64,000 nucleotides of DNA from NCBI GenBank assembly GCA_050084515.1, contig CM114271.1, positions 48,484,001-48,548,000 on the forward strand. Reading direction: 5' to 3'. Shown here piece after piece: positions 6,243-58,588 of this stretch. Within the stretch, counting starts at the first letter, position 1, and each line of letters begins with the position of its first letter. The DNA comes from Blasia pusilla (lineage: Eukaryota). A model generated the notes under the pieces. That model was not told the DNA's origin and did no database searches. It saw only the letters and a list, made by a program, of their open reading frames with translations. The position numbers were made by a program, and so were the translations under genes.

Positions 6243-7225
<983 letters not shown>

Positions 7226-10720: not shown

Positions 10721-10866
10721 ATTATGATATTTAAAAAAAAATCCCAATTAATTCTTTCTAAAAAATTAATTCCCTAAAATTTTGAAAGTATAAAATTTTG
10801 ACCAATAATGGATAAGGAAATTCCATTTCAAAATAAAGATTATGAAATCAAAAAACTTTCATAATC

Positions 10867-17665: not shown

Positions 17666-20600
17666 TGTCGTACGTATACACGTCCTTACACAACATACAT
17701 CGCTAGTCACATCCACACCACACAACACCAATCTTCCCCATGTGGAAAACTACTAAAGAAGCATAATTGGTGAGAAACGGGTCTCACACTTACACACCAC
17801 CATGGAGAACCAAATTTGCAATGAGAGAATGAGTGGAGGCTGGTCCCCTTCTCAATTATATAGAATAGGTACAAGCAACCCTAACCCTAACCTTAACCAT
17901 AGTGTCAAGTTAGACTACTATGATTAACTAACCCTAGTTAAAATAATCGCGATTAATTCACTAACCAAAATTAAGCTTCCCTACTTCGTGTATGTACCAA
18001 ATGTAGCAGTTCAGATGTCTCATAAGTTTGACTCTAACTCAATCTTCAATACTCTCCCTCAAGCTCATATCGATATCTCTAACGCCTAAATCATTTCTAA
18101 ACATCTCAAACTTATCTTGCTGACATCCTTTGTAAAGATGTCAACAATTTTCTGATGTGTACCTATATACATAAGATCAATTTCTCTTCCAAGCACTTTC
18201 TCTTTGATAAAATGATAGTGCACCTCAACATGCTTTGCACGAGCATGAAACACAGGGTTATTAGCAAGATTGATGCTACTAGTATTGTTTGCATATATTA
18301 CACTAGGTCCTAAGTTACTAACACCAATCTCTGCAAGTAATCGATGAAGCCACACCGCCTCACATGCTGCATTGGTTGCTCCTGTATACTCAACCTCTGT
18401 TGAAAATAAAGCAACGGTAGGTTGCTTCTTTGAAGTCCAACTTATGGTTGCGCTTCCCAAAGTAAATAAATAACCAGATGTGGAGTGTTGATCAACACGC
18501 TCCTTGCCCAATCAACATCTGTGAATCGGAGAAGGTTCAAATGAAAGCCCGAATTGAATAGAGAATTTCACATATCGCATAATCCTCCTCACAACATCAA
18601 GGTGAGGTTTTCGAGGTGCTTGTATAAACTGGCTTACTAGGCTAACAACATAGCTCAAATCTGGTCTGGTTATAGTTAGATAGATCAAACTTCCCACCAT
18701 GCGCCTGTATTTATTAGAATCTACAAGCAACTCTCCTTCATCCACTCTTAGCTTCACACTCTGGTCCAACGGTGTAGAGATTGGCTTACAAGCCGTCATA
18801 CCATATTTTGAAAGCATATGAAGCCCATATTGTCATTGTAGTAACCACATGCTCTCTCCAACCTTGATAAACTCAATACCAAGGAAGTACTTGATTTCTC
18901 TAAAGTCCTTCATATCAAATTATGCTTGTAACTTAAGCTTGACTTCTTGTACCATTTCTTCAATACTCCCTGTAATCAGGAGATCGTCAACATACAACAC
19001 AATGAGAATCCTATGATCTTGTCCTCTCCAGATATATAACGAGGAGTCATAATCACATATCCTAAAACCCAACTCTTGTAGAACGTATGTAATTTTGCCA
19101 TACCAAGCTCTTGGAGCTTGTTTGAGCCCATATAGAGCTTTCTTCAACATGCATATGCGAAATGGAAACTTGGGATGCTCGTATCCAGGTGGTTGAGTCA
19201 TATATACCTCCTCGTATAGATCTCCATTCAAGAAGGTATTCTTGACGTCCATGTGATGTAATCTCCTCTTCTTACTTATTGTAACTCTAACCACTGTTCT
19301 CGTAGTCGCCATCTTTGCAACAGGGCTAAATGTTTCTTCATAATCGATGCCCTTTTGTTGTGCATAGCCTTAGCCATCAATCTTGCTTTGTATCTATTAA
19401 TTGTACCATCTGATTGCGTTTGATTTTGTAAATCCATTTGCAGCCAATAGCTTCCTTACCGAAAGGTATATCAACTTGAACTCATATATGTTGATATCTT
19501 AATGCAGCAAGCTCTTCCTCCATAGCTTCAATCCATTTGACTTTACTTGCAGCTTCTTCAAAATAACTCGGGTCTTGTTCTTGAAGGGTAGTCATCATAT
19601 ATGCATGATGTGCCGCAAGAAAACCTTCATTTATTAATCTATGAACTGGATGTGTAACTCTGCTTGATCTATGAAGTTGTTGTTCAGAGGTAGATGCCTC
19701 TGATACTCCTCAAAAGACTAAATACGTACTCTTACCGTCCACGGACTCACAGATTTAACCGATGAATCTACGACCTCTCCTAATCATGTACTAGTACTTG
19801 GGGAAGTTGAAGATAATGTTTGTTGGTTTACGGTCACATTCTCCCTCTCAAGAGACAAGTTTAGAGATGGAATAGGCTGAGATGGAGCATACCATGACTT
19901 TAGCTCATCAAAGACAACATCGCGACTAATAATAAGCTGCCTAGAGGATGGAATGTAGCACTTATATCCCTTAATTCCATTAGCATAGCCAATGAAGATA
20001 CATCTTTCAGACTTGGGGTCTAATTTTTTAAGTCTCTCTAAAGGAACATGAGCATAACAAATACAGCCAAATACTTTCAAGAAGGAAAAACCAGGTTTAA
20101 TTCATGTGAAGACTTCAAATGGAGTCTTATCATAAACTTATGTTGTTGGATTTCGGTTGATTAAGAAAATTGCATATGCTATAACCTCTACCCAATATAT
20201 TTTAGGCATGTTCTTCTCATTCAGCATTGCTCGTGCCGCTTCAGCAATCTGTCCATTCTTCCTCTCAGCCACTCCATTTTATTATGGAGTGTAACGGCAA
20301 GTCACTTGACGTTGGATGCCATTCTGACGTAAATAATCAACAAACTCTGTTGAAAGGTACTATCCTCCTCCATCACACCGCAATTTCAGAATATGTTCTC
20401 TAGTCTGCTTCTCTAATAGAACTCTAAATATTTGGAACATTGAGAATACCTCTGACTTGGCTTTCAGAAAGTATACCCATATATATCTAGAGAAGTCATC
20501 AATAAATGAAACAAAGTACTGACAACCACTAAGGCTATGTTGTGATGTTGTCCACACATCATTATGGATCAACTCCAATACCCTGGATGCTCTTCTACCT

Positions 20601-23600
20601 TGCTTTGGTAAAGGAAATCTAGCTTATTTTCCAAATTGGCAAGCGGGACATACCTCTAACATAGCAAGACTCGCTAATTTAGGGAGTCCTATTACTATAT
20701 TAGATGATGAAAGACTCTGTAATTTTTGAAGATTCATATGTCCAATTCTTTTATGCCATACATTTAGATTTGTGACTTGTTGGACGATTTGACTATACAT
20801 TGCTATTTGAATCTCTGGTATAGAAACATCTAATTTGAACATTCTTCCAGATCTAATTTCTTTGGCTATCGTAGTCTGGTCATCCATTGTTTCAATGAAA
20901 CAACCATCTGCGTTAAACTTCACTTGATAACCCTATTCTACTATATGTCCTATAGAGATTAGGTTTCTTGCAATGATAGGAACATAGAGAACATTTCCAG
21001 GAGCACAAAGACCATCTGATGCTATTGGAACTTTATCAATATACGTGATATGATGTTGAGTGTCATCTCCTGTGAGCATAATTATGCGATCTTTCACTGG
21101 CTCCAAACTACTGAACCATTTAGCTTGTGAGGTCATATGATTTGATGCACCAGAGTCAATGTACCAATCTGCTATTGAGTCTTTCTTCACCATTGCTCCC
21201 ATATGATGAGTCATGACCAAAAGATGCTTTGTTTGTGAATATTGTTGTTCTTGGTACTGCTCTTGGTGTTGTTGCTCCACATAGTTTTATTGTTGTAAGA
21301 CTCCGGTTCTTATATAAGCCTTCTTCTTGAAGCAAAACTTTGCATAGTGACCCTTTATCCCACACTAATTGCAAGATCCAAGGACCCTCTACTGCTGACC
21401 TCGACCCCAACAATTTCCACCATCACCACCTTGTGATTGTGTCTGGTATTGGTTTGTAGTTGATTGAGTGACGTTATGTTGAGTGCCTCTTCCTACATAT
21501 GCTTGATATCCATCACGACCACGGAAGCTTCTGCCACAACCCCTGCCTCTCTTTGATCCATAACCTGCAAATAGCGCACTCTCTTGCAGACTAGACGAGC
21601 TATCGCTGCCTACTAGGCACATCTCTTCACCGATTAACAGTGGAACTAACTCTTGAAAGGTTGGATACTTCTCTCTCATAGAGATAGAGGTCTCAAAGGA
21701 CTTGTAATCATTTGGAAAGCCTTAAAAAGTGAACAAAATTAGATCATCATCTTCTATTGTCACTCGGATGCTATTCAACTTATCAACAATGTATCTTATA
21801 TTCAAAATATAATTATTGATGCTCTACGATCCTTTCCTCACTTCGTTCAATTATTGTTTCAATTGAAGCTTTCTGGCCTTTGTAGATGTCTGGAACAACT
21901 TTTCCAATGCATCTCAGGCCTCCTTCGGAATATCAATATTTTGAATGTGACTTATCATCGGCGGATTGATCGTTATTGAAATGTAGTGGATTACTTGCCT
22001 TGCGTATTTATTCCAGGCGCGAACATTCAAGTATGTTGAGTCACCTTCTGGCTTGGCCTCATCACCTGTGACAAGCTCCCATAGTTCTTGATCCATGAGA
22101 AATTGTTTCATGCGAAATTTCCTGACATTGTAATTATGCTTAGCTAGCTTCTCGCCTGTGATTGTTGCTAAGGAATACTCCATGACAAACGATTTCACTC
22201 ACAAAATTGTAATTTCGGGCTCTCTACGACTCTAGTTTAAGCATAGACTACTCCAAAATAGAAATCGACTTGAAATTTGATCAAATGTATGAAGGAACTA
22301 GTCGAAATTAGCTTGTAGAGAGCAAACTGCACAACTTTTCTTCACTAATTGCACTTTCCTATATTGAAATTGCTATTGCATGAGCTCACAATGTCAGAAT
22401 CGAGCGATTTTGGATGCATTGGAAAGCTCTTGACGAGATCTAAAAGATGGCATGATCTAAAATTGGGCATCATTGTTGCTTCCATGGAACCAAATGGCTA
22501 AATCGGTCGGGAAAGGCCCTCAAAAACACCTCCAAAGTTGTATCATCATCAAAGCTCCACCTGAAATCTGCACCCACTGAGCTGTGAATAAAACTTCCTT
22601 CTCCCAAGCTGAAATTGTGCCTTCTCTTTCATCTCTTCTCTCCTAAAACACCAAGAATTTCAAGTGATGTTCTCCTATCGCTCTGATACCATGTAGAAAA
22701 CTGCTAAACAAGCAAAATTGGTGGAAAACGGCTCTCACATACACACACCACCATGGAGAACGAAATTTGCAATGAAAGAATGAGTTAAGGCTAGTCCTCT
22801 TCTCAATTATATAGGATATGTACAAACAACCCTAACCCTAATCTTAACCATAGTCTCGAGTTAGACTAATTGTGATTAACTAACCTTAGTTAAGATAATC
22901 GCGCTTAATTGACTAACCAAGATTAAACTTCCTTACTTTGTGTGAGTACCAAATGTAGCAGTTCAGGTGTCTCATGAGCTTGATTGTGACTCAATCTTCA
23001 ATACCCCGCACACGGGTAGATACACACATGTACAAAAATCAACTCATACATGGAGATCACACAACAAAAATAAAAATGGCATATACGGCCTAAAAACTCC
23101 ACTCCTCAATCTACATGAGCATATCAAGCCTAGTCCATCCTGTGCTATCAAGGAATCCGAACGCTAGCACCCAATCCTAACTCACACACGAGCAAGAATG
23201 GTACTCCAACGGCCCAACATGAGAAAGATGGCTTGGGGAGGCCATCTTCCTCCCTTATATAGGTTTGGGAAGAGCCAAAAAGATCTTCCCCTAAAGATAG
23301 CTATCCTCATGGTAACCTGCGCGTACAGGTTACCAGGGGCGGGTGACCTACTCAACAAGTCACCCGGTTGTAAAAGACCTCAACAGAAAAGATGTCAAAA
23401 ATGACGTTCTTGACACAACGGACCTATCCTCAACCTCATCCGACACCTCGAGACAAAGTTACACTCAAGACAATCCCCTAAATCCTATGTCCTATCGTCT
23501 ATTCAGATGTGATAGTTGTCGTGCGCATACACATCGCTACGCAACATACATTGATGGTCACATCCACACCATACAACATCGATCTTTCCCACACACGGAT

Positions 23601-24305
23601 AGATCCACACATGTACAGAAATCAAGTCATACATATACATGGAGATCACACAACCGCCCCCCTAACTGGCAATTGGATCCCCCCAACTCCAGATAGAAAA
23701 TATCACATCTTCCTGACATGACCTACTACCCTATACACATCTCGGACATATCCATCGTCCTGTGGGAACTACATCAAGAGGGGGGGTCAAACATGACATA
23801 TGCCATAGCCAAAAACAACCATCACATACCAACATGGTGGTTGTATCCCATGCAGATCCCCACAACATACACCTCAAGCCTGCAGATACCACTGCCAAGC
23901 TCGGATCCACTGTCTTGTCCATGTTCGAAAGGTGACGTGGCGTATAGTTGCACACATGATCCTTCCAAACCATACCATCATGTCTCTCCAACATGAGGAC
24001 TCCGGTCGGTAATACCTTGCGCACACGTAGGATCGTGCGCCCTGTAGTGACATCTAGCGTCGTGGGTGCCGCATGCTCTAAATACACGTAATCTCCAGGA
24101 TGAAACCTCCTAATCCATGGATGATAACCTCCTCCACGAATGGTTCCGTACCTCAATGTATCCCTTTGGTAAGCAATAACTAAGTTCTTAAAGGCCATGG
24201 GCATAACTCTACAAAAATCTCCGCCCTTTGAGAACACGCTTGTACCCACATATCTGGATCATCAAGATCTAACACCTCTACCATGTCAGGTCAAATAGTT
24301 GTATG
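17666..24305 (-). mobile_element. 3' part of a PHD-bearing Gypsy-type element: integrase C-terminus, PHD, G-tract and B1-A2-B2 terminal repeats (B2 split by a Copia)
   Basis: ORF 23731-24249 ends in a degenerate PHD (CML..MLVCDGC..WHMSCLTPPLDVVPTGRWICPRC). G-tract 23655-23670; B1 23517-23654; A2 23066-23514; B2 is 23004-23065 plus 17666-17740. Confidence 0.8.
17741..23003 (-). mobile_element. Full-length Ty1/Copia LTR retrotransposon (coding region decayed)
   Basis: LTRs at 17741-18051 and 22692-23003. PBS TGGTATCAGAGC (tRNA-iMet) at 22680-22691; PPT at 18052-18060; TSD CCCCA/CCCCG. ORF fragments give the order gag-PR-INT-RT-RH ([38 protein letters not shown]). Confidence 0.95.
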
Positions 24306-27027
24306 CACTAGTACAAAAACCTCCTCTGGATAACTTAGAAAAATGACTAGATGCTACTCAAACCGGGCCTGTGTGACTAAGTAATTACTTAACCAGACTC
24401 TAGTAATAAAAATTACTCCTAGTCGTATAAGTTGTTACTAAAACCGAGGATAGTCATATCTTAGTCTCTTTTTTGTTACTCAAGATAGTCACTAAATATG
24501 ACTTCACCTAGTCATTTTGTATTACTAGGTTAAGTCATAAGAAATGACTAAATGAGTCATAAAGAATGACTTGTCTAGTCATAAAGAATGATTAGACGAG
24601 TAATAAAAAATGACAAGAAGAATCATAAGCATTAACTAGACTCTTCATTAAGAATGACTAGGCGAGTCAATAACTGTGACTACATCAGAGTAATAAATAA
24701 TGACGTTATGCGTCACAAGAGAATGACTAAGTCATTAAAATGACTTTTCCATGTCATTTACAATCCTATTCATTGACAATATCCAAATAACTATACCAGT
24801 CATTATGTATAAGAGATTGCTTTATTGCTGAGAGAAATATGTACATGAAATTGGCATTTGAGTCCATTTTGTATCCATGAATATGAATTACTCCTTCCTA
24901 CCTATCCTCCCTACACATATCACTAATTCGCTTACATCGATGCAATGGAGATGCGATTATATATCTGTTGTACAGTCCTAATGCTACCAGCATCATGTGA
25001 AAACATACAAGCACATTACTCCTGTACCAACCCATCCATTTTGTAGCCTGATCAGATCAGTTTTTCACAGTAAAAAATCCTTATTTATTGAAAGATAGAG
25101 CTAGCAAATATTTCTTACATCCAATTGTGGCCATAAGTCCAAAGCTACAAAATTTATCCATACACCCTGAAATGGAATATTTTCTTACGTCAGAAGAATG
25201 CCTAGTGACTTATAGTGAAAGATGGTCATCAATGGAAGAACACAATATCTACTTCTCATTGCAAACTTCCACCTCTGATATTCTCAAAATTGAGACATGA
25301 AACATAAACACCTCTATTGTAACACTCAAAACTGAAACACAAACATCAAATTCCTCTACTCATGAGTACAAAAGTTACAAGTATATGGAGATCGCCACAC
25401 TCAAGAGTAATGTCAAAGGGAATGTTTACTCAAAAATTATACACACAAAGCGAAGGTGCCCCTATTTTTTAGAAGGCATAAGAATATGAGATGGCCATAA
25501 CACTACACTATCAATGGTATCTCCAACATAAATCTACGGTGGATCGTCAGCCATATTTAGAAATGGAAATACGTATTTCTTCTTGTAGACCTCTCTCAAA
25601 TGGAGAACAGAATGCCCATCTAGAATGTCACGTCCATGGAAAGTAGAACAACCATCATGCAAGGTGGCATAACCTACAACCACAGAGGGGTTCTCACGTG
25701 ATATCAACTGCTACAACGGAGGCACAACAGATTACAACACCCGCTTGGTAGCCTCTCCGGTCCTCTTCCTGAGTGTCGCTCTTCTCACCACCATTGGCTT
25801 TTGCAGAAGATCCAACTGATCCAACTCCATGGGTCCACCACTCCCCAACATCCTTGCACTATCCTCATTCTCCTCTGAAAATACCGTGGCCTCTCAATTG
25901 CATCTCCGCGATATCCTCATTTGGCGTTTGCCTACAACGGTTGGGGCCTCATCCGTGGTCTCTACAATCACAATCAACAAGAACATCTCACTGCCCTTTC
26001 AAATAGATCATGGTTTTCAGCAACTTCAAAGTAAAATGCACAATATCCGTCTAAACTCACATACGTGAACTCAAAGGGTCACCCGCAAACACAGTAGCAT
26101 TAACCTCTCTTTTGCCTCCCTTTTTCTTTGGACCAGTTGGTGCAATGCCAACATCTGTATCTAGTCCTCTTACTGTATGAACACCCTTGGCAACCTGTGG
26201 AAGAACTGGAGGTGAAGGCACAATAGTGACCTTCTCCGGAGAGGGTGCACTCTCCCTTGAAGGTGGTCCGGTGATTGGGTGAGGCGAGGATACACTCAAC
26301 GGCATAGAGGCAAGTGCTCCACTAGGAGCAAGGTCTCGATCACTAGCTCCATGAGGAGAGGATACAACTCTTGGATTTTTTTATCTCTCCTTGGAACCCC
26401 TTATGTCCTCATGGTCCCTTCTCAAGCTCATGGAAATCAATTCCATCAACTTTGTGAAGTTCTCTTGTTGATTAGCAACAACAGTCTTTATGCTTGTCTC
26501 TAGCACGTCCATACTGTTGGAGAATGCATCCATGCGATCAATTATGTAAGTCACAGACTCGGGCAACAACTCCTCCATAGACTTTAATCGGGCACATATC
26601 TCTGTCAGCTCAGATGTTCTAGGCGCTTGAAATACAAGACCTAGATCTCAGTCTATATCAACAGACATGTACTAGAAATACACTAGATTCAACTCTATTC
26701 TAAAGCAACCAGATGCAAATACCTGCTTTGACACTAAACTTGTACCATAACTCCTTTGGTTCTTTGCCTCCTCATGCACCTATGCCTTAGTAGGGGTTTG
26801 CCCCTTCTCTTTTCTCTACAACACATGTTACACCGACCAAGTTCAGTCTACCAAACACCATTTTCCAAACTATATGCATGGTGGTAATAGAAATTAAAGA
26901 TGGGTCCTTCAATATTTTTCATACCAAGTGATCTGCAATTGGTGCGTTCCCTTTTCTTCCTACAGGGTTTGGATTGGTCACCGCTGCCCGTGCTTTGGAC
27001 ATCTACTCACTCTTTGTCTTTGCACTC
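24306..27027. mobile_element. One end of a CACTA (En/Spm) DNA transposon with subterminal repeats and a decayed minus-strand TnpA-like gene
   Basis: Starts CACTAGTACAAAAAC exactly where the Gypsy integrase is cut. ATGACT/AGTCAT repeats are dense in both orientations over 24340-24760. A minus-strand fragment VVGYATLH..FHGRDI..FPFLNMADDPP (~25530-25680) resembles a TNP1/En/Spm domain. The second TIR was not found. Confidence 0.7.
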
Positions 27028-29221
27028 TATCATGACCATACGGATTATGTCGTAGAGTATAGTGTGCTAGTAGAGGCCATACCTTATGTAGGGCCGTAGT
27101 GTCTAGGTAGAGATGCGGTTTCATACATAGGGTTGGGGGTTTCTCAGTTGAGGGTGACTTCTCCAATAGGGCCCGCTCTTAGGTTGGAGGATATAGTGTG
27201 GAGTGCACTCAAAGAATAGTTAGTTCTTTGAGTTGAGCGTGTTGCGTTGGGAGTTAGCCTTGGTAGTGAGTAGAGCTGTTGGCTATGGTGGTTCCCGCAA
27301 GCTTCGACGTGGATTCTCCCATTGTGGAGTGGGTTTGGCTCGATTGTATATGATTCTATACGTGTTTTATGATAGTAGGTCTTTCACGGATTTCACTCAA
27401 AGAACTAGAGTAGATCGATGGTAGCTTGGATTGTGGATCAGTAGCATCCGGTTATGGCTGATTGTGTACTCATCCGTGGATGTTCATGGCTTGTGGCCTA
27501 TGTTGGTTGGGAAAGAAGCGCCTTGCTGAGAGCTTTCCAACCCCCTTTAGATCGCCGGATTTTGTCAAGGGTGTTGGAAGTTATAAAGGATTGAAGATTT
27601 TGGTTCGTGTTCGACGGTTTTCTGATGTGGAGAGCTTGGAGTGCGGAAGCTCTGTTGAAGTTCATCCAGATCGGGTGAGAGGCTTCGAGGCAACTCATGA
27701 TAGCTTGGGGCGAGTGGGCATGAGAGGCGGAGTAAGGAGCAAGGAGCAAGCAAGCCAGCTTGCTTGCTTGGGCGTGAGGCAGTTTTAGCAGGATTTGTGA
27801 TTTGAGTGTTGCATAACTGGTCACCTTTGGGCTATTCTGCCTGAGTTCTTAACTATGTCAGTGTACACACTGGTGTAGCTCATTTGGTGTTGTTCGGAGA
27901 TGTGTTAGGCTCTTTATGCATCTCAGGTTTTTGGTTGATGGACCTGTAGCGCATAGTACGGTGTAGCCTCTCCATGTAGGTAATATTTTCAGGTGCTGCG
28001 AGTCCAACTAGCACGTCATCGACCCGCGGCGGAGTAGCTAGTGCATTAGAATTGTGTGGTGGGTTCTGTGGATTCAAGGGGCGCCACATTTGGTGGATTT
28101 TTTTACCTTGATTTCCATTTGCGATTGGAGGGTTGTCGTTGGACTTCTTGTGTTTGGATCCCCTCCATCGTTGCTTCTTGCTTGCGCGGCCATTGTTTGG
28201 GTTGACGCTGATTTCCAGAGTAGTGTTACTCTTGTGTGCTACCGGTAGTGAGGCTGGAGTGAAGACCAGTAGACCGTGGGAGGCTTCTTGTGGTGATGAC
28301 AGGTTAGGTTTCCTACACCCAGAGCTAGTAGAGCTAGAATAGTACAGCGACATCGACGTCACTTGGTTACTTAGTGGTGGTAATTTTTTGGTGGTGCGGC
28401 ATCGGCGTTGGTCATCATGGAGTTGTCTGGTGGTCTGGTTGGGGACCGTGGTGGAGACAGTGGTGGTTCTACACTGAGTGGATTGAGGTATCGGCTACCT
28501 TTTCCACTTCCGACGGCTGATGAAGAGGAGGACGAGGGTGTTCGAAATACCGAGTCTTCTACGTTGCTATCGAGTGTTGCAGCTCCATTGATTTAGGACA
28601 TGGACAGGATATATGGGGCCATGAAAGGCCCATGACAATACTCGGGTGTAGTGGGCACCATTGAGTTGGAGGACTTTATGCAGGAGTTTGATACGTGGTG
28701 TGATATGCAGATGTTGCGGAACGCCACGTTGTTTACACCCTTCTTGGCTTGGAAGGGGTTGTTTCAACACTTGGAGTGACCACTCATGGATGATTACCAT
28801 GAGTTTAGGAAGGACCATGTTGCTGAGATCGAGGCGTGGAGACAATATTGGTCTCCAGGCTATGTGTCTATCACCCATGGTGGTATTGGTAGTATTGCTC
28901 CTACTATGCCAGCCAGCCCGACGTTGAGTGGTACGAGTACGAGCCAAAGTGGGGGTACCAGTGGAGGTACCCATGGAGGTACCTATGGGGGTACTGGTGG
29001 AGGTACTAGTGCCCCACCATCGTTCAGCCCGGTTGCAGAGTTCTTCAAGAGGTTGAAGAAGAACTATCAGGGAGTGAAGATAGAGAAGTTGAGGAGTCTT
29101 TAGGAATTTGAGCGAAAGACTGGTGAGAGTCTTCATGAGGCATACATTTGTATGCAACGCTGATTTCAGTTACCCAGGGTGTGATTGAGGCTCAGGTAGT
29201 CCAGTTTTGGTATGGGATCTT
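27028..29221 (+). mobile_element. 5' part of a Gypsy-type element (repeat A1, long leader, gag N-terminus)
   Basis: A1 at 27028-27395 begins TATCATGACC. Gag motifs SGVVGTIELEDFMQEFDTWC, MDDYHEF and FFKRLKKNYQGVKIEKL lie at 28600-29221. Truncated by the opposite-strand copy starting at 29222. Confidence 0.85.
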
Positions 29222-32200
29222 TGTCGTGCAAATCCACATCGTCATACAACATACATCGCTGACATACCATACTCACATACATACATAACATAGACGAGAG
29301 CATCCACAAACACAAGTGTACCACAACTGAAATCCGTGAAAGACCTACTGTCATAAAACAAGTATAGAATCACATAAAATTGAGCCAAACCCACTCCACG
29401 ATGGGAGAATCCACGTCGAAGCTTGCGGGAACCACCATAGCCAACAACTCTACTCATTACTAAGGCTAACTCCCAACGCAACACGCTCAACTCAAAGAAC
29501 TAACTATTCTTTGAGTGCACTCCACACTATATCCTCCAACCTAAGAGCGGGCCCTACTAGAAAAGTCACCCTCAACTGAGTAACCCCCAACCCTATGTAT
29601 GAAACCGCATCTCTACCTAAACACTACGGCCCTACATAAGGTATGGCCTCTACTAGCACACCATACTCTACGACATAATCCGTATGGTCATGACAGTTAT
29701 CGTGCGAATCTACATCGTCATACAACATACATCGCTGACATACTATATTCACATACATACATAACATAGACGAGAGCATCCACAAACACATGTGTACCAC
29801 AACTTGCCCCCTAACTGGCGGTTAGGTCCCTCTAACTCCCTGGTAGCCCTATACATGTAGTACATGTTATACACCTTCTTGGGTGCATGAATCAGAAGGT
29901 CGGGTGCTAGGTTGCCCCATCGTTAGTCGCACATCTGTAATCCATATCATGCAAAGATCAAGTCATCTACCTCTCCTAAGTACATTGAGGACAAACCCAC
30001 CTTCCAGTAGGAACAACATCCATATGTGGAGTCAAACACATCATGTGCCAACCCCTAGAACACCGATCACACACCAACATACGGGTTGCGCTACCAGCAG
30101 ACCCACACAACATGCACCTCAAGCTAGCACGTATCATGGCTAAGCTTGGGTCAACAACACCATCCACATTTGGAAGATTACATGGCGCAAAATAACACAG
30201 ATGGTCCTTCCAAACAACTCCATCTCGACTCTTCAACATGAGAACTCCAAAAGCTAACACCTCGCGCACTAGTAAAATAGTGCGGCCTGTCGTCACATCC
30301 AACGTTGTCGGTGCAATCTGCTACAAATAGACATAGTCCCCCACATGGAACCTACAAATCGATGGTCGATAACCTCCACCTCGAATGGTTGCATACCACA
30401 ACGTATCCCTGTGTTGAGCAATGGCAAGGTTCTCAAAGACTGTTGGCATAACTCTCTGAAAGAGCTCTGCCCGCTGAGAACACATTCTCATCCACATCTC
30501 TGGGTCATCAAGGTTCACCACCTCACTAGACTCATGACGAATTGCTGCGGGCAAGTCTGGATCTCGGCCATATAACAGAAAATAAGGTGAGAAGGAAGCC
30601 AAGGATGCTTGGCGACTGAACCTATACCCCATGGCTAACCATGGCAACTGAATATCCCAGTCTCCAAGATGCCCCTTCTGTAGGCCATACTTGCACAATA
30701 CCCTCTTCACCGTCTGAATCACACGCTCAACCAAACCATCCGCCTCTGGATGATCTCGAGACGTGGTCCGATGATCAATCAACGCCTTGTCACACAAGAC
30801 TTGAAACTCACCCTGAAACTCCGTTCCTTGGTCGGTCAACACTTCAGCTGGTGCACCAAAATGACTAAGCACTCTATCAAGAAACGCATACGCCATTCCC
30901 TCACTTGCCTTGTCAGGTAATGCCACCAACTCAATCCACTTGGAGAAGTGCTCCACCATCACCAACACATATCGATGATGTCGTACAATCAACGGTAACG
31001 GTCTCGCAAAGTCCACACTCCAACGGTAACCCAACCCCATAATAGGCAAGGGGTGTAACTGTGGTGTAGGGGCATTGAATGATGCCCTCACCCGATCACA
31101 AACCATACAACATGACACCAACTGCTGCACCTGAGTATGCATGCCACGCCACCAATACTGACCAAGGAGTAAGCTATACGTACGCTTTACCCCAAAATGT
31201 CCCAACTCCTCATGGGCATGTCGCACAATGCGCTCTCTCTGAGCCAAATGCGGCACTACTCGTACTCTACCATCCTCCCACACACGGAGAATATGTGTTT
31301 CCTCCGATCGATACCTCTTAGCACGTTGAAGAACACAGTCTTGCCGTGGGGCCTCCTCTTCCTCGTGAGGTATGACAGCCTCACACCAAGCCTCCTTCAC
31401 TAGGCGATCAACCTCTTGCCGTAGTACACCGCTTGAACTCCAAAGTGGCACATCCAACGATGAGGATGCCACTACTGCAAAACTAGGGACTTCCTCTACC
31501 TCCTCATGCACAGGAGAATCCATAGCAGAAAGGTTACTCTCCAAAAAGTCTCCTGGCCAAGTGACTACTCCACAAAAACCAGCCATAGACGCTAACACCG
31601 TTGGAGAAGACCCTCTAGGTCGAACCTCATAAATAAATCTCACAGGAACCTAGCTCATACGTCAATCCTATGACTGCCAACCAGGTCTATAAGACGCTGT
31701 CTTAGTCCAGTAGTCCATCTGAAAACCCATTGGGTATAATACTGCTCCTCCAACTAGTACATCATATGACTCGGCTGATGTGACCACTGCAGGTACTCCC
31801 AACCGGGAGCTATCATTTGCATGATCTGGTCTTAACTGTACAGACAACTTCTCCCGTGTCATGAATTGAGACCTATCATTGGATCCTCCAAGTGATGTTT
31901 GAATCTGGAATGGGCAAGGCTCAAGCTCTGACCTCCGAATACCCAAACCAATACATGCCGCCTTTCCCAACATCAAAGGTTGGGCACCAGAATCTAACAA
32001 GACTCTATCTGATCTATACACCTGTCTTGTAGGACTCACCAATCGGAATATCCCACTCCGGTTGTCCAACATACATACACCAGGTGTAAGCGTCTCACGA
32101 TCAATGGCAGGCCGGGCTGGTAATGCATCCATCTTCGCCGCTGCTGCCTGCCAAGTAGCACTGGTACTCAATGCTACACCTGACATTGAGGGTCGCTCCA

Positions 32201-33480
32201 TCGCAACACCTTCATCCACCTCAACACGTGTAGCAGTAACACCCCCACGTTCACACAATGTGGCTACTAGCTGAAATATAGGAGCTAAGTCAACTCCTAA
32301 AGCCATCAGCTCCGTGTCCGAAAACAATGGGGATCCCAACACTGAAGTTGCCATCCGCAATACTGCACTGGATGCTGCATCTGTGTCTACTACACGCGAT
32401 GTAGATGCCTCAATCCCCATTGTCGACTCAATAGGCTCTGTAGGAACCATGGATGGAGTCCTAAGCACCTCAGACAACAAGAATGACTGGGGAAGCCTAG
32501 CGTGCCTCCCAGCCTCACCCCTCTGTGGGTCCAACTCCACAGTAGCACCACGTGGCTCTAACGCTCGAGTGGCTCCTCTCGTAATTGCAGCTGATGCCTC
32601 AACCTATGCTGCACTCGCCATATAAGAGAGATCATCCCCTCCATAAGAGATGGAAGCCCTTGCTCCCGAATCTGCTCTATGCTGGATACCAGCCATAGTA
32701 GCCAACTTCTGCTCCAATTGCTCAATCCTGGCAGCCATAGCTGACTCTGTCGTAGTGGTAGGGATGGCTACCGTAGGCTCTCCAACCACTCGTCCACCTC
32801 TACCATCCCTACCACCTCTACCACCTTGGCCTCTCGGAGCTACTCCACCAGGGCCGCGGCCTGATCTCAACTCTGGATGAAGATCAAAGCAACGCTCTCC
32901 CGCAATGATCACACTGAGTTGGGGCCGACTGAGGCCCATCCTCCAAAGTCCGTTTCCCATCCTCTTGGGGACAAAACCTCCTAACATGATCACCTCCACG
33001 TGTCCAACATGACTGTCCTTGCTGCGGGGCAAAAAATGAAGGCAATGGTCTCTACGCAAGTGTCCCTCTAGGACCTGACTGAGGTTGTGTGTACCCCCCA
33101 CGACTCCCACTACTACTACCACCACCACTACTACGAGACTGTGAGGTGGACTTCTGAACACGAGAAGTAGTAGTTGTATCCCTATTGAATGTGGATGTCA
33201 ACACTCTCTCCTCCACCATGTTAAGCTCAATCTTCTCAGATAGAGCAAACACATGGGTCAATGTGGGTGAATCATCACTCATAAGAGTAGCATCAGGTAC
33301 ACTGCGGCGCAACTCTCTGTCCAAGATCCCATACCAAAAATGGACTGCCTGAGCCTCAGTCATACCATGGGTAATTGAAATCAAGTGTCGCATACAAGTG
33401 TATGCCTCACAAAGACTCTCACCAGTCTCTCGCTCAAATTCCTGAAGATTCCTCAACTTCTCTGTCTTCACTCCTTGATA
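29222..33480 (-). mobile_element. Internally deleted Gypsy-type element: gag-PR fused to integrase-PHD, ending in B1-A2-B2
   Basis: Gag 33052-33480; PR VLLDSGAQPLMLG (31668-32540). The integrase has an H2C2 finger and DDE (WSVDF, LTDQGTEF, GLVER) in 30321-31643. An intact PHD CMLC..CDRC..HMMC..WVCPQC lies in 29976-30302. B1 29698-29803, A2 29328-29695, B2 29222-29328. No RT or RNase H. Confidence 0.9.
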
Positions 33481-36400
33481 GTAAGTGAACCACATTCGGG
33501 CCTAAAGTTACCTTCTTTTTCCAGGCTTGCAAGAACAAGTAGACATCATAAGACCACTACAAACATCCTTCCATCACTCTCCATTTGAGCCCAATTTTCT
33601 TCACATTGCCTGTCTAAGCCAGCTCTACAGTAAGCCGGGCTGAGGGGTATTAATGTCGGAGGATTATCAGCAGATAATTTGAACCAAAGTAGCAATTTCA
33701 TCTCAATGAAAAGTTCAAAACAAGACTCTAACTATTGTCTCAATAGACTCCTATGCCCTTCAAGGTTTAACTACTTAGAAGATGTGGTTGACATTATGGA
33801 TTGTTGACTCTTCTTGCATTAAATATCCCATCCGGTCAATACTCATCCATGAGGAGGTTTTCCACAATAGAAAAAATTCACTCATCACTCATGGTAGCCA
33901 AAGACTTTCATGATATCATTGGATGATGTTGGCTCATGAATGGGTGCATAAAGTATGAAAGACAACTTGGTTTCACCATTCTCTCAGCCATTGAGAAATG
34001 TATGCATCAAGAAGAAAATATGATGAGACTAAGAGGACAATTGAACCAAAAGGTTGATAGCTATCAAGAGTAAAGAGGAATTGATGCACCCATGTCCCTT
34101 CATTCAGACCCTAAATGTCAGAATCTGACAAGTTGCACCCCTTCCAACCCGTCGGAATCCGACAGGTTGCAACTCTTGCAACCCGTCGAAATCCGATGGG
34201 TTGCACCACTTGCAAGCAAGCACACCACAACAAAAGAAGGATCTTGAGAAGTGATTCCATTCCATCCTACAACCCATGAGAATCTGTCTGGTTGGGAATC
34301 TGACATAAGAATCCGATAGGTAGTAGGAATCCAACACGTCTTTGAAATACCGTGTTAGAGGAGAATGGTGTGATGATAATGGGGGAACGAGGCAAAAGTG
34401 AAAAATCCTCCCAAAATGCCTGAAAAGTTGGACTAGCAAGAAAAGAGTGGGATCACTCAAGCAGCCAACCTATCGGAATCCGACAAGTTTCCTGCAAGGG
34501 GTTTAAAATATTGTGACAAGTTGCAACCCGTTGGAATCCGACGGGTTGCAAAATAAACAGCCTCCAGTAGATAGACCAACACAATCGACAAGAACAAAAA
34601 ATAAAATTCAGCAGAAGTTTGCAAAAACCTCATGGTTCAAAAACTTTGTGTCCTTTATTATATCCGAGGGAAGCTCGGAAATGTACATTTGATCTAGTCT
34701 ATGATTTCTTCAGCCTCATCATATATAAATTTACTCCTAACTCTCCTAGATTCCTATACAAAAGGAATGTCTTGGGATACAAGTGGCTCCTCTGGCCGAT
34801 AGTAGACGGGTATTGAAAATGTTGGGGAATTCGAGAGCCTTGGCCCCCCTTGGTACACCATAACGGTCCCATGTAACATGATTTGAGTCCCAACACCTTC
34901 CTCGGTAGTAAATCTTGTATGCTCTGCAAGGTGACACCCATCTAGTATCAATATGTGCTCCGTCCTTGGAAAGCACTAAATCCCTTCTCCAAAACGCTTC
35001 AATCAAGATGGGTCCAATAAATCTTTGAACTCACTCGTCATCGTCCGATAGCTCTTCCAGAATTACTCTCGGCTTTGCCCTCCCGATTTTTGGAATAGTA
35101 GGAAGTGACAATGGTGTCACTATCAATGCTGGTTCTAGAACCGAGCTCTCAACTTTGGAGGAGAGTTGTATACTCCCACTAGCCTCTCATAATCCACCTT
35201 TGCCTCTTTGCAAAGGTCAAAAAGTTCCGGCCTTCCCTCAAGGGAGAGTATATTTATAGAAGAGAATTCATCGGCCAATGTGCCAGGCACCTCTAATAGG
35301 CCCCTAATAGGCCCACTAAGTCAAAGACCAAGTCACCCGGCCTTGAACAGAGCTCGATGAGCATTTGCATCAAGGCAGGTGAATTTTCCCTTGCTCCAAG
35401 TAAGGGGGTCCCGTCTTGCATGTAAATTCCAGCGAGGGGATTTTGGAGACTATCTAAGTTGTACCCATCGGAGCATGGATCCACTAGATCCGGGATCTGG
35501 AACACCTGGAAGTTGTGCTCGGGCCTTACAAAGCAGTAGACAAATGAGTGGTCCATCTGTAAACAAGCAGGTAAAAAATAATGTCGGCAAAAAGAAAAAG
35601 CTAGTAGATCCTAAGCTACTCTCCATAAAGTGACACAAAGTGCAAACCGTCGGGATCCGACGGGTTGCTTTTCAACCCGTCATACTAGTCCATACTAATT
35701 ACCAACTCGTCCGAACTTGGCCTATAGGCTTGATAGATAACGACCTGTCGGAGTCCGACGGGTTGTCTTACAACTATAACCCCTTTTTGGCCATAAGCAA
35801 CCCGTCGGAAGCCGACAAGTTGCTCATCTTGCTGGACAGAACCTCCACCGTTTCGAGTGCCATGGTTGGCTTACAACTGAATACAATTGTTCAGAGTTGA
35901 GAAGTTCCTAATATAAGAGCAACTCGTCACTTTCAGACGGGTTGCATCAATCTAGAAACACGGGGAAAAGCAGTGCTAATTGCAATCCGTCAGAACCCGA
36001 CGGGTTGCAGTCAATGGAGACTTGTTGGTGAATTTGCAACCCGTCGCTTTCAGACGGATTGCAACACCGCAGACACAAGCTGTTGGGATCCAACGGGTTG
36101 CATGCATAGATGCAACCCCTTGGAGCCCGACAGGTTGAATTTCAGTTAAACTAAATTCGTATAATAAGGGGACTTACCCGAACTTGACTCGTCGCCGATC
36201 GCAGTGGATACTCATTTTTAATTACCCATGATTGCATCGTCCTCCACTTCAGTGACCTCTTCACGCACTAAAGGTTGAAGAGCTTGTCTTCGCTCCGTCC
36301 AGTGAGGACCAAGAAACAACCCTTGTCACTCAGATATGCGTTGGCAAAAGAAACAGCAGCGCGATGTGGTCGTACGAAAGCGGGACATTCCAGTATGGGA

Positions 36401-39998: not shown

Positions 39999-41854
39999 GA
40001 TGAGGTTGGTATTCTGGCAAGAGAGAGGAAGAGATGAGAGTCTCTCTTAAAAAAAAGGGCCAAATCCGCCTCCTCTCTTCAAAACTTTTTGACATATTTG
40101 AAATTTTTGTTTGCTTTCAAATTCATGAAATCTTTAGAAGAGAGTAGGTAGTGGTCCACTTTCGGGCCTAAAGAAACCTCCATTTTGCAGGGGGCGAAAA
40201 ACTAGTAGACATCATAAGACCACTACAAAAATTTTCCCATGACTCTCCATGTGAGCCTAAGTTTTTTCACATTGCCTGTCTCAGTCTACAGTAGGTTGTG
40301 CCCAGGGCTAATTTTTTTTGGAGGACCATTGGCAAATAATGTGACCAGAAGTAGCAATCTCATCTCAATGAAAGTTTCAAATAAAGACCAACTTTAAGAA
40401 ATGTGGACGCAGGAGACGATAATTGAATTAAAAGATTGTTAGCTATCTGGAGTAAAGAGGAATTGATGTCCCTTCATTCAGATCCTAAATCTGAGAAACC
40501 GAGAAACTGCACCCCTCCCAATCCGTCGGAATTTTACAAGTTGCAACTCTTGCAACCCGTCGGAATCAGGTGGCTTGCACCCCTTGCAAGCAAGCTCACC
40601 ATAACAAAGGAAATATTTTGAGAAGTGATTCCATTCCACCCTGCATCCACGAAGATCCAACTGGTTGGGAATCCGAAATGGCAATCCGACAGGCTTTAGG
40701 AATCCAACACGTCTTAGAGAAGAAAAGAAGCCTACGACTGGTTTGACAATACTGGGGGAATGAGCCAAAAGTGAATAAGCCTACCACAATGCCTCAGAAG
40801 TTGGTCTCATAGGGAAAGAGTTCGATCACTCAAGCAGCCAACTTGTCGGAATCCGACAGCTTTCCTGGAAATGGTTAAAAAGTTGCAGTGGTGAAAAAGT
40901 GAAAAGTTGCAACCCGTCGAAATCAGACGGGTTGCAAAATAAACATTCTGAGTAGCTAGACAAACACAATCGACAAGTCCAAAAAAAATATTCAACAAAA
41001 TTTTACAAACACCATTATCGTTTGAAAAAATCTTGTCCTTTATTACATCTGAAGGAAGCTCGGAAATGTATATTTGATCTAGTCTATGATTTCTTCAGCC
41101 TCGTCATCTACAAATTTACTCCTAACTCTCCTAGGTTCTTGTACAAAAGGAATGTCCTAGGATACAAGTGGGGCTCCTCTGGCTGATTGTAGACGGGGAT
41201 CGAAAATGTTGGCGAATTTGAGAGCCTTGGCACCTCCTAGGTACACCATAATGGTTCCATGTAACCTGATTTGAGTCCCACCGCCTTCATCGGCAGTAAA
41301 TCTTGTACGCTCTGCAAGGTGACACCCATCTAGTATCAATATGTGCTCCGTCCTTGGAGACACCATCATGTCCTCAGCGAGGTAGTAGGAATCCAACACG
41401 TCTTAGAGAAGAGAGGAAGCCTAAGACTTGTTTGACGAAACTAGGGGAAGGTGCCAAAGTGAAGAAGCCTGCGTGAATGCCTATAAAGTTAGACTAACAA
41501 GGAAAGAGTCCGATCACTCACGCAGCCAACCTGTCGGAATCCGACAGGTTGGATGGAAGTGGTTAAAAAGGTGCAGTGGTCAAAAAGTGAAAAGTTGCAA
41601 CCCGTGACAATCCGACTGGTTGCAACATGAAGTGTCGGAGTACAAAGACGATCACAATCGACAAGACCAAAAAAAAATATTCAACAAACTTTTACTAACA
41701 CCATCATCGTTTGAAAAAATCTTGTCCTTTATTACATCCAAAGGAAGCTCGGAACTGTACATTTGATCTATTCTATGAATTCTTTTGCGTCGTCATCAAA
41801 TAAATTCCTACTCCAAAATGCTACAGTCAAGCTGGGTCCTTGAGTTCTTTGAAC

Positions 41855-58459: not shown

Positions 58460-58588
<129 letters not shown>

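Follow-up and report, generated by a model that had tools for sequence, protein, structure and literature searches.

Split direct end repeats in place of ordinary LTRs in a Ty3/Gypsy lineage with a predicted self-priming site

A group of Ty3/Gypsy elements, in Blasia pusilla and in related loci from elsewhere, carries split end repeats in place of ordinary LTRs, and the integrated form reads A1-PBS-interior-PPT-B1-NN-A2-B2. The window analysed here is a stretch of 64,000 nucleotides of B. pusilla (GCA_050084515.1, contig CM114271.1, positions 48,484,001 to 48,548,000). The lineage is found in mosses and related green plants, with its nearest named proteins in Sphagnum, Calypogeia, Klebsormidium and volvocine algae, and in the best reading it is a streptophyte-plant lineage. 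Its polyprotein order is gag-PR-(DNMT-like)-RT-RNaseH-INT-PHD. The original prediction, from which this study started, had placed the repeat blocks of two subfamilies at coordinates that hold within 1-2 nt. It knew of no description of such elements, but a one-line mention does exist: the layout is given for KnitGypsy-Dnmt3 of Klebsormidium nitens in the legend of Fig. 4c of de Mendoza et al. 2018 (PMC5890265). In the literature searched, as far as the accessible parts of the sources go, that legend is the single place where the layout is noted, and a mechanism for a split-repeat Gypsy layout was not found.

The 3' end of subfamily 2 lies on the minus strand. A conserved, G-rich, PPT-like G-tract (29804..29840) runs straight into B1 (29698..29803), which begins with GTTGTGG directly after the tract, ends with CACGATA and shares 94-95% identity with B2. 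A 42-nt block at this tract is 79% identical to the tract of subfamily 1, and the same motif lies 5' of B in the alpha-family loci shown. Next comes the joint J1 (29691..29704), made of the B end, the spacer AC (29697-29696) and the A start TGTCA, and it is crossed by RNA reads. A2 (29328..29695), which is 96% identical to the A1 at 27028-27395, contains a TATA-like box and the 5' self-primer site. It is followed by B2 (29222..29327) with the right terminus CACGACA. At 29222, where B2 ends, lies a genuine insertion boundary: a plus-strand gag is interrupted there and RNA reads from uninterrupted copies pass 29221; homology to that gag ends at 29221, and the loose ends of RNA reads at this point extend into intact gag. 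On the interior side, an integrase with H2C2 zinc domain and DDE core is followed by a PHD finger (29979..31649, minus strand; Pfam PF17921 and PF00665), the best relatives being 72-84% identical. The PHD finger (29979-30320) is in frame with the integrase after one stop codon. Its C4HC3-type pattern was read by eye in orf114, which matches the PHD ORF of subfamily 1 at 66%, and a PHD finger is also present in relatives. A 5'-truncated gag and an aspartic protease (31671..33482, minus strand) are homologous to those of three further copies in the window and to protein P0078. RT and RNase H are missing from this copy through an internal deletion near 31340, and RT matches in the window are confined to 40019-39093 and 577-2. 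The interrupted element belongs to subfamily 2 as well. On the plus strand, its solitary A1 (27028..27395) starts with TATCA and has unrelated sequence upstream. Downstream, a leader and N-terminal gag (27408..29221) run in the same direction up to 29221, where the minus-strand element interrupts gag; residues 1-152 of P0078 match 28600-29237.

Subfamily 1 shows the same arrangement on the minus strand, in two fragments. In the 3' fragment an integrase C-terminal tail with PHD finger (23737..24278) is followed by the G-tract (about 23655-23690) 5' of B1 (23517..23654), the spacer AC (23516-23515), A2 (23514-23066), which holds the TATA box and the self-primer sequence, and a B2 in two parts (23004..23065 and 17666..17740), with the terminus ACGACA at 17666 and the flank GAGC. 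The two parts are separated by a nested Copia-type LTR element of about 5 kb (17741..23003), foreign to the Gypsy element, with 316-nt LTRs (17738-18052 and 22689-23004) and an interior 88% identical to the ORFs at 10870-14094, which bear Copia-type Pfam domains. In the 5' fragment a solitary A1 (55789..56231; TATCA at 56231, flank GAGT) is 82-91% identical to A2, has a TATA box at 55996-55991 and a self-primer site at 55967-55954, and leads into leader, gag and protease of the same orientation (51748..55775). There are two further elements in the window, both on the minus strand. The third (37354..40019) has RT, RNase H, integrase (38647-37625), PHD, the G-tract and a single B (37471-37354), thus PPT-B only, with A2-B2 absent downstream. 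The fourth (2..6194) extends past the window edge; its 5' terminus TGTAATG lies at 6194, and it has gag, protease, a DNA-methyltransferase-like region (1668-1057) and the start of RT (577-2).

Is this layout real, or could ordinary LTR elements have acquired such odd ends by chance, as tandem or deletion products? In favour of the latter is the state of the window copies, which are nested, old and broken. Eighty related loci were taken from metagenome contigs, and after merging of duplicates they gave 46 distinct 3' ends: 20 with PPT-B1-NN-A2-B2, 21 with PPT-B only, 3 ambiguous and 2 unclassifiable. Counted by locus, B-NN-A-B lies downstream of the integrase in 27 of the 58 loci with at least 1200 nt downstream (28 were flagged, and one was dropped as a tandem-repeat artefact). 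The families that show it are only about 50-84% identical in their integrases. At the other end, B is missing from both flanks of each of the 15 distinct A-only copies, as had been predicted for 5' ends, and BLAST with a word size as small as 7 found no B-like sequence beside the two window A-only copies. A search for intact copies that have a tRNA PBS and identical repeats at either end found none. Chance products are excluded, because the layout recurs in 20 distinct loci belonging to at least three diverged families; that no A-only 5' end adjoins B and that perfect target-site duplications (TSDs) flank A1...B2 also speak against them, and this reading is refuted. The B-only 3' ends, about half of the total, may be direct products or the result of B1/B2 recombination.

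The termini tell what is inserted. The elements end in 7-nt inverted repeats, TGTCATG...CAYGACA, and the inserting unit runs from the A start to the B end. Perfect 4-bp TSDs flank two full A1...B2 copies (L002, AAGG/AAGG; L058, AATC/AATC) and one A...B copy (L074/L075, ACTA/ACTA). The other four of the seven pairs are imperfect, namely L008 (3/4), L028 (2/4), L051 (1/4) and subfamily 1 of the window (3/4, on the assumption that both halves are one element). The B|A joint had been proposed to be the two integration termini placed head to tail, and the 7-nt inverted repeats around a 2-nt spacer bear this out: J1 is a near-palindrome, CAYGACA-RY-TGTCATG, whose arms can pair at 5-7 of their 7 positions. 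A pattern scan of 22 distinct loci gave a spacer of exactly 2 nt in 20 of them, and two window copies have the same length. It is GC in 9, AC in 6, AT in 3 and GT in 2 of the 20 loci, and AC twice in the window, all purine-pyrimidine.

A 4-bp target duplication with 7-nt inverted termini is as expected of a DDE integrase, and such an enzyme is what the elements encode. The prediction of an H2C2-DDE integrase agrees with the Pfam matches and with invariant H, H, C, C and D, D, E columns, and in relatives the integrase lies within a PR-RT-RNaseH-INT-PHD polyprotein. Could a tyrosine recombinase acting in trans nevertheless insert a circle at the B|A joint, in the manner of DIRS, PAT and Ngaro? 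The repeat layout does equal that of split-direct-repeat DIRS elements (PMC8969392, PMC5890265). However, a tyrosine recombinase was found neither in the ORFs scanned, as had been predicted, nor in the Pfam lists of 120 relatives; the DDE integrase is conserved; and perfect 4-bp TSDs are seen here, while DIRS elements are described as lacking TSDs (PMC8969392, as far as that account goes). This route is largely refuted and would be very surprising.

How is reverse transcription started? A predicted transcript start with self-primer, TAGTTCTTTGAG (27221..27232, plus strand), lies about 30 nt downstream of the TATA-like box at 27191-27196, and a self-priming PBS, CTCAAAGAACTA (27396..27407, plus strand), stands immediately 3' of the A1 end. 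The two are an exact 12-nt complement, reached by 0 of 2000 shuffles. In subfamily 1 the corresponding PBS, ACATGAGAAAGATG (55776..55789, minus strand), is a 14/14 complement of 55967-55954; its 13-nt complement was matched in 0 of 2000 shuffles, in a 16-nt window covering only the first 13 nt of the PBS. Pairing at the same position spans 16 nt in L002, 11 in L008, 10 in L058 and L010 and 9 in L074, the exact complements across six alpha-family copies being 16, 12, 11, 10, 10 and 9 nt. Beta-family L051 pairs at 13 of 14 positions, with one mismatch and an exact stretch of 8 nt. Of the ten 5' ends tested, L028 and L011 pair exactly over just 6 nt. L045 and L079 (beta family) and L040 and L053 (gamma family) showed no pairing where it would be expected. 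Where there is pairing, the PBS is directly 3' of A and its partner 23-33 nt downstream of the TATA-like box, and in four copies 0 of 2000 shuffles matched the observed length. The PBS and self-primer sequences differ among families, and therefore the pairing covaries. Note that in Tf1-type self-priming a tRNA is not needed. The earlier suggestion of tRNA independence thus gains positive support from a predicted Tf1-like site.

These signals also bear on a cut-and-paste origin, in which A-interior-B would be a DNA unit, the integrase its transposase and B-NN-A-B a set of secondary tandem products. Ginger transposons do combine a Gypsy-like integrase with TIRs (PMC2836005), and the 7-nt inverted termini, the 4-bp TSDs and the share of B-only 3' ends would fit. 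But gag, PR, RT and RNase H are retained in the long polyproteins of relatives (Pfam on two relatives), the PPT and self-priming PBS signals are conserved and covarying, and the 2-nt spacer with a complete B duplication recurs in three families, unlike random neighbouring insertions. We regard this origin as highly improbable.

The reverse-transcription signals sit at the two remaining boundaries, the G-tract against the B start and the PBS against the A end. From a PBS after A and a G-tract abutting B, the 'LTR' of the cDNA should therefore be B-NN-A, and the genomic copies should be a circular permutation of that cDNA. The joint J2 (A2|B2) is remade, while J1 is inherited. Between close copies J2 shows indels, while the PPT|B joint and J1 do not vary in length. 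In L004 and L006 J2 has an additional CGA from the PPT tail, and about 22 nt are missing in L006; in L062 A is shortened to 75 nt at J2; and beta-family J2 keeps 0-2 PBS-side nucleotides.

Three stranded raw-read runs labelled as the same species were used for RNA. The element RNA is of the sense strand, and 14, 32 and 15 reads cross J1 in the three runs. Within the A2 of subfamily 2 depth drops from about 100 to about 1-3: in A2 context the proximal 120 nt have 94-131, the following 110 nt 39-66 and the distal part before J2 0.8-3.5. In A1 context it is 66-82 in distal A and 13-24 from the A end into the PBS. These depths may be shaped by A1/A2 placement and by soft-clipping, because the reads derive from paralogues that share 90-95% identity with the window. 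Molecule ends cluster at 29534 and 29469/70, that is, A positions 162 and 226. The pile-up at 29534 counts against the model, because it is upstream of the equivalent of the predicted start (position 194) and leaves no R.

How, then, would an A...B-NN-A-B copy arise? Reverse transcription would give a cDNA with the LTR B-NN-A, in which U3 would be B, NN and proximal A, and R-U5 distal A. Inside this LTR the two integration ends would sit head to tail as the near-palindrome J1. The cDNA ends (A end and B start) would become joined, in a 2-LTR circle or an over-length copy, forming J2. The integrase would then cleave after CA on both strands of one J1, the 2-nt spacer giving the usual 5' overhang, and A...B-NN-A-B would be inserted. 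The A...B form could come from pairing of the two nearest J1 sites, or from later B1/B2 recombination, and should be a dead end because the 3' R is absent. We somewhat favour the core of this scheme, that the integrase cuts the palindromic J1 joint in joined-end or over-length cDNA and not free DNA ends; the joined intermediate, circle or over-length, and the circle-junction idea with it, are purely inferred. A 2-LTR circle has two identical J1s, so random cutting predicts equal numbers of A-B-NN-A...B and A...B-NN-A-B copies. The former is seen in 0 of 15 A-only 5' ends, and therefore the model needs an added asymmetry, for example an over-length linear cDNA.

A direct route would do without a joined intermediate. 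Priming or cleavage would take place at the J1 palindrome of the RNA, perhaps of a dimer, the cDNA would end at the A start and B end from the outset, and A2-B2 would be added by template switching. The near-palindromic J1 is indeed conserved and present in RNA, and the A...B form with a perfect TSD (L074/L075) would be the simple product of this route. It leaves unexplained, however, the conserved G-tract at B, the covarying self-priming site at A, and the B2 after the A end, with a junction as heterogeneous as is typical of joined cDNA ends. The direct route thus seems rather unlikely. For cleavage of a joined cDNA there is a precedent, since the retroviral-type integrases of foamy virus and HIV-1 are reported to cut the palindromic 2-LTR junction into processed ends (PMC1180852, PMC1905944). 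There the palindrome, as described, arises only upon end ligation, whereas here the LTR and every genomic copy contain it permanently, around a 2-nt spacer.

Several known systems resemble these elements. KnitGypsy-Dnmt3 is matched by DNMT-bearing polyproteins among the integrase relatives (P0009, P0092), by a K. nitens protein, P0032, with 51% identity to the window integrase, and by the DNMT-like region at 1668-1057. The account of it, compared by description, gives the layout alone, and TSDs, termini, PBS, PPT and mechanism are absent from the accessible text (PMC5890265); the window elements differ in ending with a PHD finger and in their bryophyte host. PAT, Ngaro, TOC1 and Kangaroo share A1-internal-B1-A2-B2, with an internal B|A joint equal to the joined termini (PMC8969392, as described there). 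They encode a tyrosine recombinase and have no TSD, whereas an H2C2-DDE integrase, a 4-bp TSD, 7-nt inverted termini, a PPT and a self-priming PBS are found here, and the resemblance looks convergent. Tf1/Sushi and Tcn1 also have no tRNA PBS and a site right after U5 complementary to the transcript start, but they have ordinary LTRs and a chromodomain. A plant survey, in the part available, predicts self-priming in the Tcn1 and TAR lineages (PMC6317226). Gypsy-7a_cRei of Chlamydomonas is an active Gypsy element with a PHD finger, and a legend mentions its 'LTR subparts'; it differs in being described with LTRs and with the PHD finger listed before the integrase (PMC9940879). The final 8 bp of its right LTR are absent from the left LTR in that description (PMC9940879), which may represent the missing B in its smallest form and is taken as a lead only. 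What the present elements add to these systems is the self-priming PBS right after A, covarying in three families, and the G-tract adjoining B.

The repeat blocks A and B of the original prediction were all recovered, within 1-2 nt, by a repeat search and a self-BLAST of the window. In subfamily 2, read on the minus strand, a G-rich tract seen in the sequence (29840-29804) is followed by B1 (29803-29698, starting GTTGTGG and ending CACGATA), the spacer AC, A2 (29695-29328, from TGTCATG to TTTCA) and B2 (29327-29222), which ends CACGACA and gives way to unrelated flank. Position 29222 is a confirmed insertion boundary: homology to the interrupted gag ends there, and RNA reads of intact copies extend beyond 29221 into gag. 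Subfamily 1 has the same block order on the minus strand (23690-23004), with B2 resuming at 17740-17666. Its B2 is split by a nested 5-kb Copia-type element (17738-23004) with 316-nt LTRs that are 87-88% identical; the interior of this element matches a second, oppositely oriented Copia copy at 10870-14094 with 88% identity, and that second copy has Pol_BBD, gag_pre-integrase, SH3_retrovirus and RVT_2 domains. There are also two lone A copies, at 27028-27395 (plus) and 56231-55789 (minus). Both begin TATCA after unrelated sequence, and both are followed in the same orientation by a leader of 1.2-1.8 kb and then gag. As had been claimed, the 5' A stands without B: no B-like sequence was found near either window copy at a BLAST word size of 7.

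Does the layout hold in other copies? Besides the window, copies were taken from one metagenome-contig scan using the integrase alignment, which gave at least 80 loci at 48-86% identity; among the matches listed, 538 of 598 pattern-matched stretches encode a relative. Of the 58 listed loci with at least 1200 nt past the integrase, 28 were flagged for a short direct repeat beginning 400-600 nt beyond it; one flag (L013) was a tandem-repeat artefact, so that 27 loci remain. A library of A and B blocks was then mapped back on all loci, and loci sharing a flank were merged. Among the matches listed this gave 46 distinct 3' ends, of which 20 read PPT-B-NN-A-B (PPT being the G-tract abutting B, and NN a 2-nt spacer), 23 read PPT-B only (in two of these the sequence beyond B is too short to judge) and three are ambiguous. 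In the same set, A has B on both sides in 26 locus rows and in the two A2 copies of the window, four B-A rows have a truncated or diverged A or B2, and one A-B row is without B1. Lone A blocks occur in 16 locus rows and in the two lone copies of the window, that is 15 distinct copies, and B stands beside A in none of the 15. Identical repeats at both ends, which would make the split ends chance products, were thus not found among the matches listed: the 5' end is A only, and the 3' end is B-NN-A-B (20 ends) or B. An LTR of the form B-NN-A-B at both ends is ruled out as well, since the primer-binding site (PBS) lies directly after A and no B is present at 5' ends. Two loci are complete copies, L002 (A1 at 1679, B2 end at 10805) and L058 (A1 at 1327, B2 end at 12353). 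The layout occurs in three families, alpha, beta and gamma, whose repeat sequences all differ and whose integrases are about 50-84% identical. It is a real and conserved trait. A gamma-family A-B block at 585-899 (minus) of L036, with B1 and interior absent upstream, is a candidate solo or mini element, around which no clear target-site duplication (TSD) was readable.

To which class do these elements belong? The H2C2-DDE integrase of the original prediction was confirmed by Pfam on the window integrase ORF (31649-30324, minus), with its H2C2 zinc domain and DDE core, and by alignment with 20 relatives, in which the H, H, C, C and D, D, E columns show no variation. A PHD finger comes after the integrase. 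The predicted lack of a tyrosine recombinase also held: PF00589 was found neither in 26 window and locus ORFs and the proteins of three relatives, nor in the Pfam lists of the best 120 relatives. The best 120 longer relatives are mostly RT-RNaseH-INT-PHD polyproteins, some with a cytosine DNA methyltransferase domain; those with a named source belong to Sphagnum fallax, Calypogeia fissa, Klebsormidium nitens, Haematococcus and volvocine algae. One relative (P0092) has the order PR, DNMT, RVT_1, RT_RNaseH, Integrase_H2C2, rve, PHD. At least six fragments of this Gypsy-PHD lineage lie in the window, all of the following on the minus strand. The subfamily-2 copy keeps gag, protease and integrase and has lost RT and RNase H by an internal deletion near 31340. 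In the third copy (40019-37354) RT, RNase H, integrase and PHD survive, the first three in that order within 40019-37520. The fourth (6194-2), cut by the window edge, still has a DNMT-like stretch. Since Pfam gave no RT between protease and integrase of subfamily 2, an element wholly without RT was considered; this reading was dropped because RT is present in the relatives and in two other window copies, and the subfamily-2 copy is internally deleted. The DNMT-like stretch at the left edge (1057-1668, minus) shares 33-35% identity with the cytosine DNA-methyltransferase part of Gypsy-DNMT polyproteins, matching residues 82-279 of the relative P0009 and 390-597 of P0092, and no Pfam domain was called in the one ORF of it that was tested. 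Judged from sequence, the elements would belong to Ty3/Gypsy: they have the order PR-RT-RNaseH-INT with an H2C2 and DDE integrase, TG...CA inverted termini with a TSD of the 4-5-bp class, and PPT and PBS abutting the repeats, although these bracket B-NN-A rather than the integrated termini. The sole Ty3/Gypsy feature that fails is two identical LTRs, one per end, in place of which there is A only at the 5' end and B-NN-A-B or B at the 3' end. Domain content and named relatives support this placement. Ginger elements, in which a Gypsy-like integrase is bounded by terminal inverted repeats without RT or gag, differ in that the elements here have gag, PR, RT and RNase H.

Several other features of the window may be described at this point. 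A repeat of 2.4-3.9 kb, here called the long repeat (33479-37352 and 42526-40145), was tried as a giant 'A' of the third element and rejected as unsupported, for it reaches upstream of the supposed start and its copies abut 5'-truncated Gypsy at different internal points. The copies at 33479-37352 and 40145-42526 (minus reading) are 76-81% identical over at least 2.4 kb, their neighbours are Gypsy-PHD fragments, and one starts exactly 1-2 nt past the B end of the third element. As the two adjoining integrases have a similar identity (77%), the arrangement may go back to an old tandem duplication of a unit made up of repeat and Gypsy. At 47218-51310 (plus) there are long ORFs of 203, 516, 349 and 140 aa, with a weak SWIM zinc-finger match below the Pfam cut-off; these ORFs may be what is left of a Mutator-like transposase, interrupting the subfamily-1 Gypsy element downstream of its protease. 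A further Gypsy-PHD family has 5' regions at 6194 and 46489 (minus), 80-87% identical over about 1.2 kb, which start TGTAATGTACAAG and TAATGTACAAG; its 3' ends lie beyond the window sequence. Two perfect microsatellite-like arrays of 6-nt period, about 125 nt each, are at 6925-7049 and 58462-58585.

The integrated termini are of the kind that a DDE integrase makes. A starts with TGTCATG and B ends with CAYGACA, which together form 7-nt inverted repeats. Target-site duplications are perfect, 4 of 4 nt, in three complete copies: AAGG/AAGG in L002 and AATC/AATC in L058, both of the form A...B-A-B, and ACTA/ACTA in L074/L075, of the form A...B. Three of four positions agree in L008 (A...B, GGTT/TGTT) and in window subfamily 1 (A...B-A-B, GAGT/GAGC, if its two halves are one element), while L028 (A...B, ATCA/AACC) agrees at two and L051 (A...B, TAGC/ACTC) at one. 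The original prediction had read the internal junction as the two termini joined head to tail. This was borne out: at the B|A joint, called J1, the termini are opposed with exactly 2 nt between them in 20 of 20 pattern-matched loci and in the two window copies. The pattern was unmatched in two further loci, L033, where the arms are more diverged, and L049, where B1 is partly deleted. The spacer is GC in nine loci, AC in six, AT in three and GT in two, always purine-pyrimidine. Where the spacer is GC, J1 reads as a perfect palindrome, at most 16 nt long; each of the other spacers differs from the GC of a CAGCTG site by one or two transitions, and the purine-pyrimidine rule fits such transitions. 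Could the spacer be flank of the donor site, in the manner of insertion-sequence circles? This is ruled out, because it is always purine-pyrimidine and does not match the elements' own TSDs. Two low-depth DNA contigs of one run (X1) join the B end (29224-29227) to the A start (29692-29695) across 8 nt, with two different, unrelated octamers in place of the usual 2 nt; these could be aberrant joints, or else two insertions lying next to each other head to tail.

The signals for reverse transcription are placed differently from the termini. In every family the conserved G-tract stops where B1 begins. In 5' copies, the short sequence directly past the A end is an exact complement of a site within A, which is found 23-33 nt past a TATA-like box, with 155-176 nt left to the A end. 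In the alpha family the pairing covers 16 nt in L002, 12 nt in the plus-strand window copy, 11 nt in L008, 10 nt each in L058 and L010, and 9 nt in L074; it is 14 of 14 nt in window subfamily 1 and 13 of 14 in L051 (beta). Note that three families have three different PBS sequences, and the pairing therefore covaries. When A was shuffled, the observed length was reached in 0 of 2000 shuffles for four copies, and in 2, 8 and 33 of 2000 for other copies. The pairing is degenerate (6 nt) in L028 and L011, and at the expected place there is none in L045 and L079 (beta) or L040 and L053 (gamma). A complement of an internal site lying directly after A is the arrangement of Tf1-type self-priming. Such a predicted self-priming site would explain why no recognisable tRNA site had been seen. 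According to a passage of a plant-wide survey, self-priming is predicted only for the Tcn1 and TAR lineages (PMC6317226). On sequence the complementarity is strong; the reads of three RNA runs give no clear transcript start.

These RNA data are three stranded raw-read runs of the same species label, and the reads are sense-strand for both element orientations. Reads spanning J1 number 14, 32 and 15 in the three runs. In the context of A2, depth is 94-131 over A positions 1-120, 39-66 over 121-231 and 0.8-3.5 over 232-342; in that of A1, it is 66-82 over the distal half of A and 13-24 from there across the PBS. Two places collect many molecule ends, 29534 (A position 162) and 29469/70 (A position 226), and only the end at 226 leaves a short R (in the LTR sense) past the predicted start-equivalent, position 194. 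Placement or clipping of reads from paralogues 90-95% identical to the window may distort this depth profile. Most reads of the PPT and PHD region, with loose ends at 29807 and 29839, come from another expressed subfamily, whose B starts like that of the third element (37471 downward) and which has only the conserved PPT block in common with the subfamily-2 copy. The A2|B2 joint, J2, varies by indels among close copies, whereas the PPT|B joint and the J1 spacer are constant in length. For example, extra CGA from the PPT tail is found at J2 in L004 and L006, about 22 nt of A are missing in L006, A is reduced to 75 nt in L062, and beta-family copies keep 0, 1 or 2 PBS-side nt. The J2 indels and the RNA profile agree in fitting a J2 that is remade in each cycle and a J1 that is inherited.

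How would such an element be replicated? If the plus-strand primer sets the B start and the minus-strand primer sets the A end, the cDNA should, by the usual course of reverse transcription, bear an LTR of the form B-NN-A at both ends. The genomic order A-PBS-interior-PPT-B-NN-A-B would be a circular permutation of that cDNA, in which the A end is joined to the B start, making J2, and in which the opening falls at the J1 that the left LTR contains. Integrase would cut past CA, on both strands, at one J1 of joined-end or over-length cDNA; the 2-nt spacer would turn into the usual 5' overhang, and insertion would give the 4-bp duplication. Foamy-virus and HIV-1 integrases cleave the palindromic 2-LTR junction (PMC1180852, PMC1905944). 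A circle would have two equal J1 sites, and the mirror form A-B-NN-A...B is found in 0 of 15 A-only 5' ends; hence an asymmetric intermediate is needed, which might be a linear cDNA extended too far on the right. Half of the 3' ends among the matches listed are of the B-only form, which may come directly from pairing of the two J1 sites closest to each other or may arise by later B1/B2 recombination. Having no 3' R of the LTR, this form should be replication-incompetent. No circular or cleaved DNA was seen, and the joined intermediate is one that we infer. The full proposal is that the integrase ends have moved inside the LTR and permanently form a palindromic attachment junction there, that joined-end cDNA (a 2-LTR circle or over-length molecule) is obligatory, since ends recognised inside the LTR must integrate from it, and that the integrase acts like a restriction enzyme; we hold this as possible rather than probable. 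In retroviruses, integration of joined-end cDNA is regarded as a dead end. Bacterial insertion sequences have circle junctions, to which the proposed J1 may be likened, and the likeness would be convergent if the reading is true.

Among known systems, the PAT, Ngaro and TOC1-type DIRS elements, as described in part of PMC8969392, have split direct repeats, A1-interior-B1-A2-B2, that match the layout here, but they have a tyrosine recombinase and no TSD, in contrast to the DDE integrase and the perfect duplications of the window lineage. The belief that a Gypsy of this kind had not been described proved wrong: the legend of Fig. 4c in PMC5890265 gives a Gypsy-DNMT3 element of Klebsormidium nitens (KnitGypsy-Dnmt3) a DIRS repeat structure with Gypsy domains. 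This element was named in no other paper found. An active Chlamydomonas Gypsy with PHD is drawn with 'LTR subparts', the left LTR being the right minus its last 8 bp (PMC9940879, Fig. 6A legend), and this Gypsy-7a_cRei may be related to the window lineage, a comparison made with the legend and not with sequence. Thus the layout alone is already in print, barely described. The literature covered, supplements excepted, held no mechanistic account of split-repeat Gypsy, of self-priming together with PHD, or of retrotransposon junction cleavage. What appears to be new is the bryophyte-type spread, the 4-bp TSDs with inverted termini, the palindromic joint with its 2-nt spacer and the covarying self-priming site, together with a constant J1 against a variable, apparently untranscribed J2. 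The original interpretation was good overall, and the finding it pointed to is real and conserved.

What do these features mean for the lineage? It is abundant, with at least 538 encoding stretches in the metagenome-contig scan, and transcribed in three RNA runs, and LTR finders that require a matching repeat at each end plus a tRNA PBS will overlook or misclassify it. The DNA methyltransferase and PHD finger of some members are relevant to the interplay of transposons and host chromatin. The newly seen features make the question of replication directly testable. If the inferred route is true, circular or joined cDNA would be a productive integration precursor in this lineage and not waste, which would bear on an old debate in retrovirology and on the substrate choice of DDE integrases. 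It would also mean that the elements came by convergence to the split-repeat architecture of tyrosine-recombinase retroelements; this architecture would then arise without tyrosine recombinases, and the layout would mirror replication topology, not enzyme ancestry.
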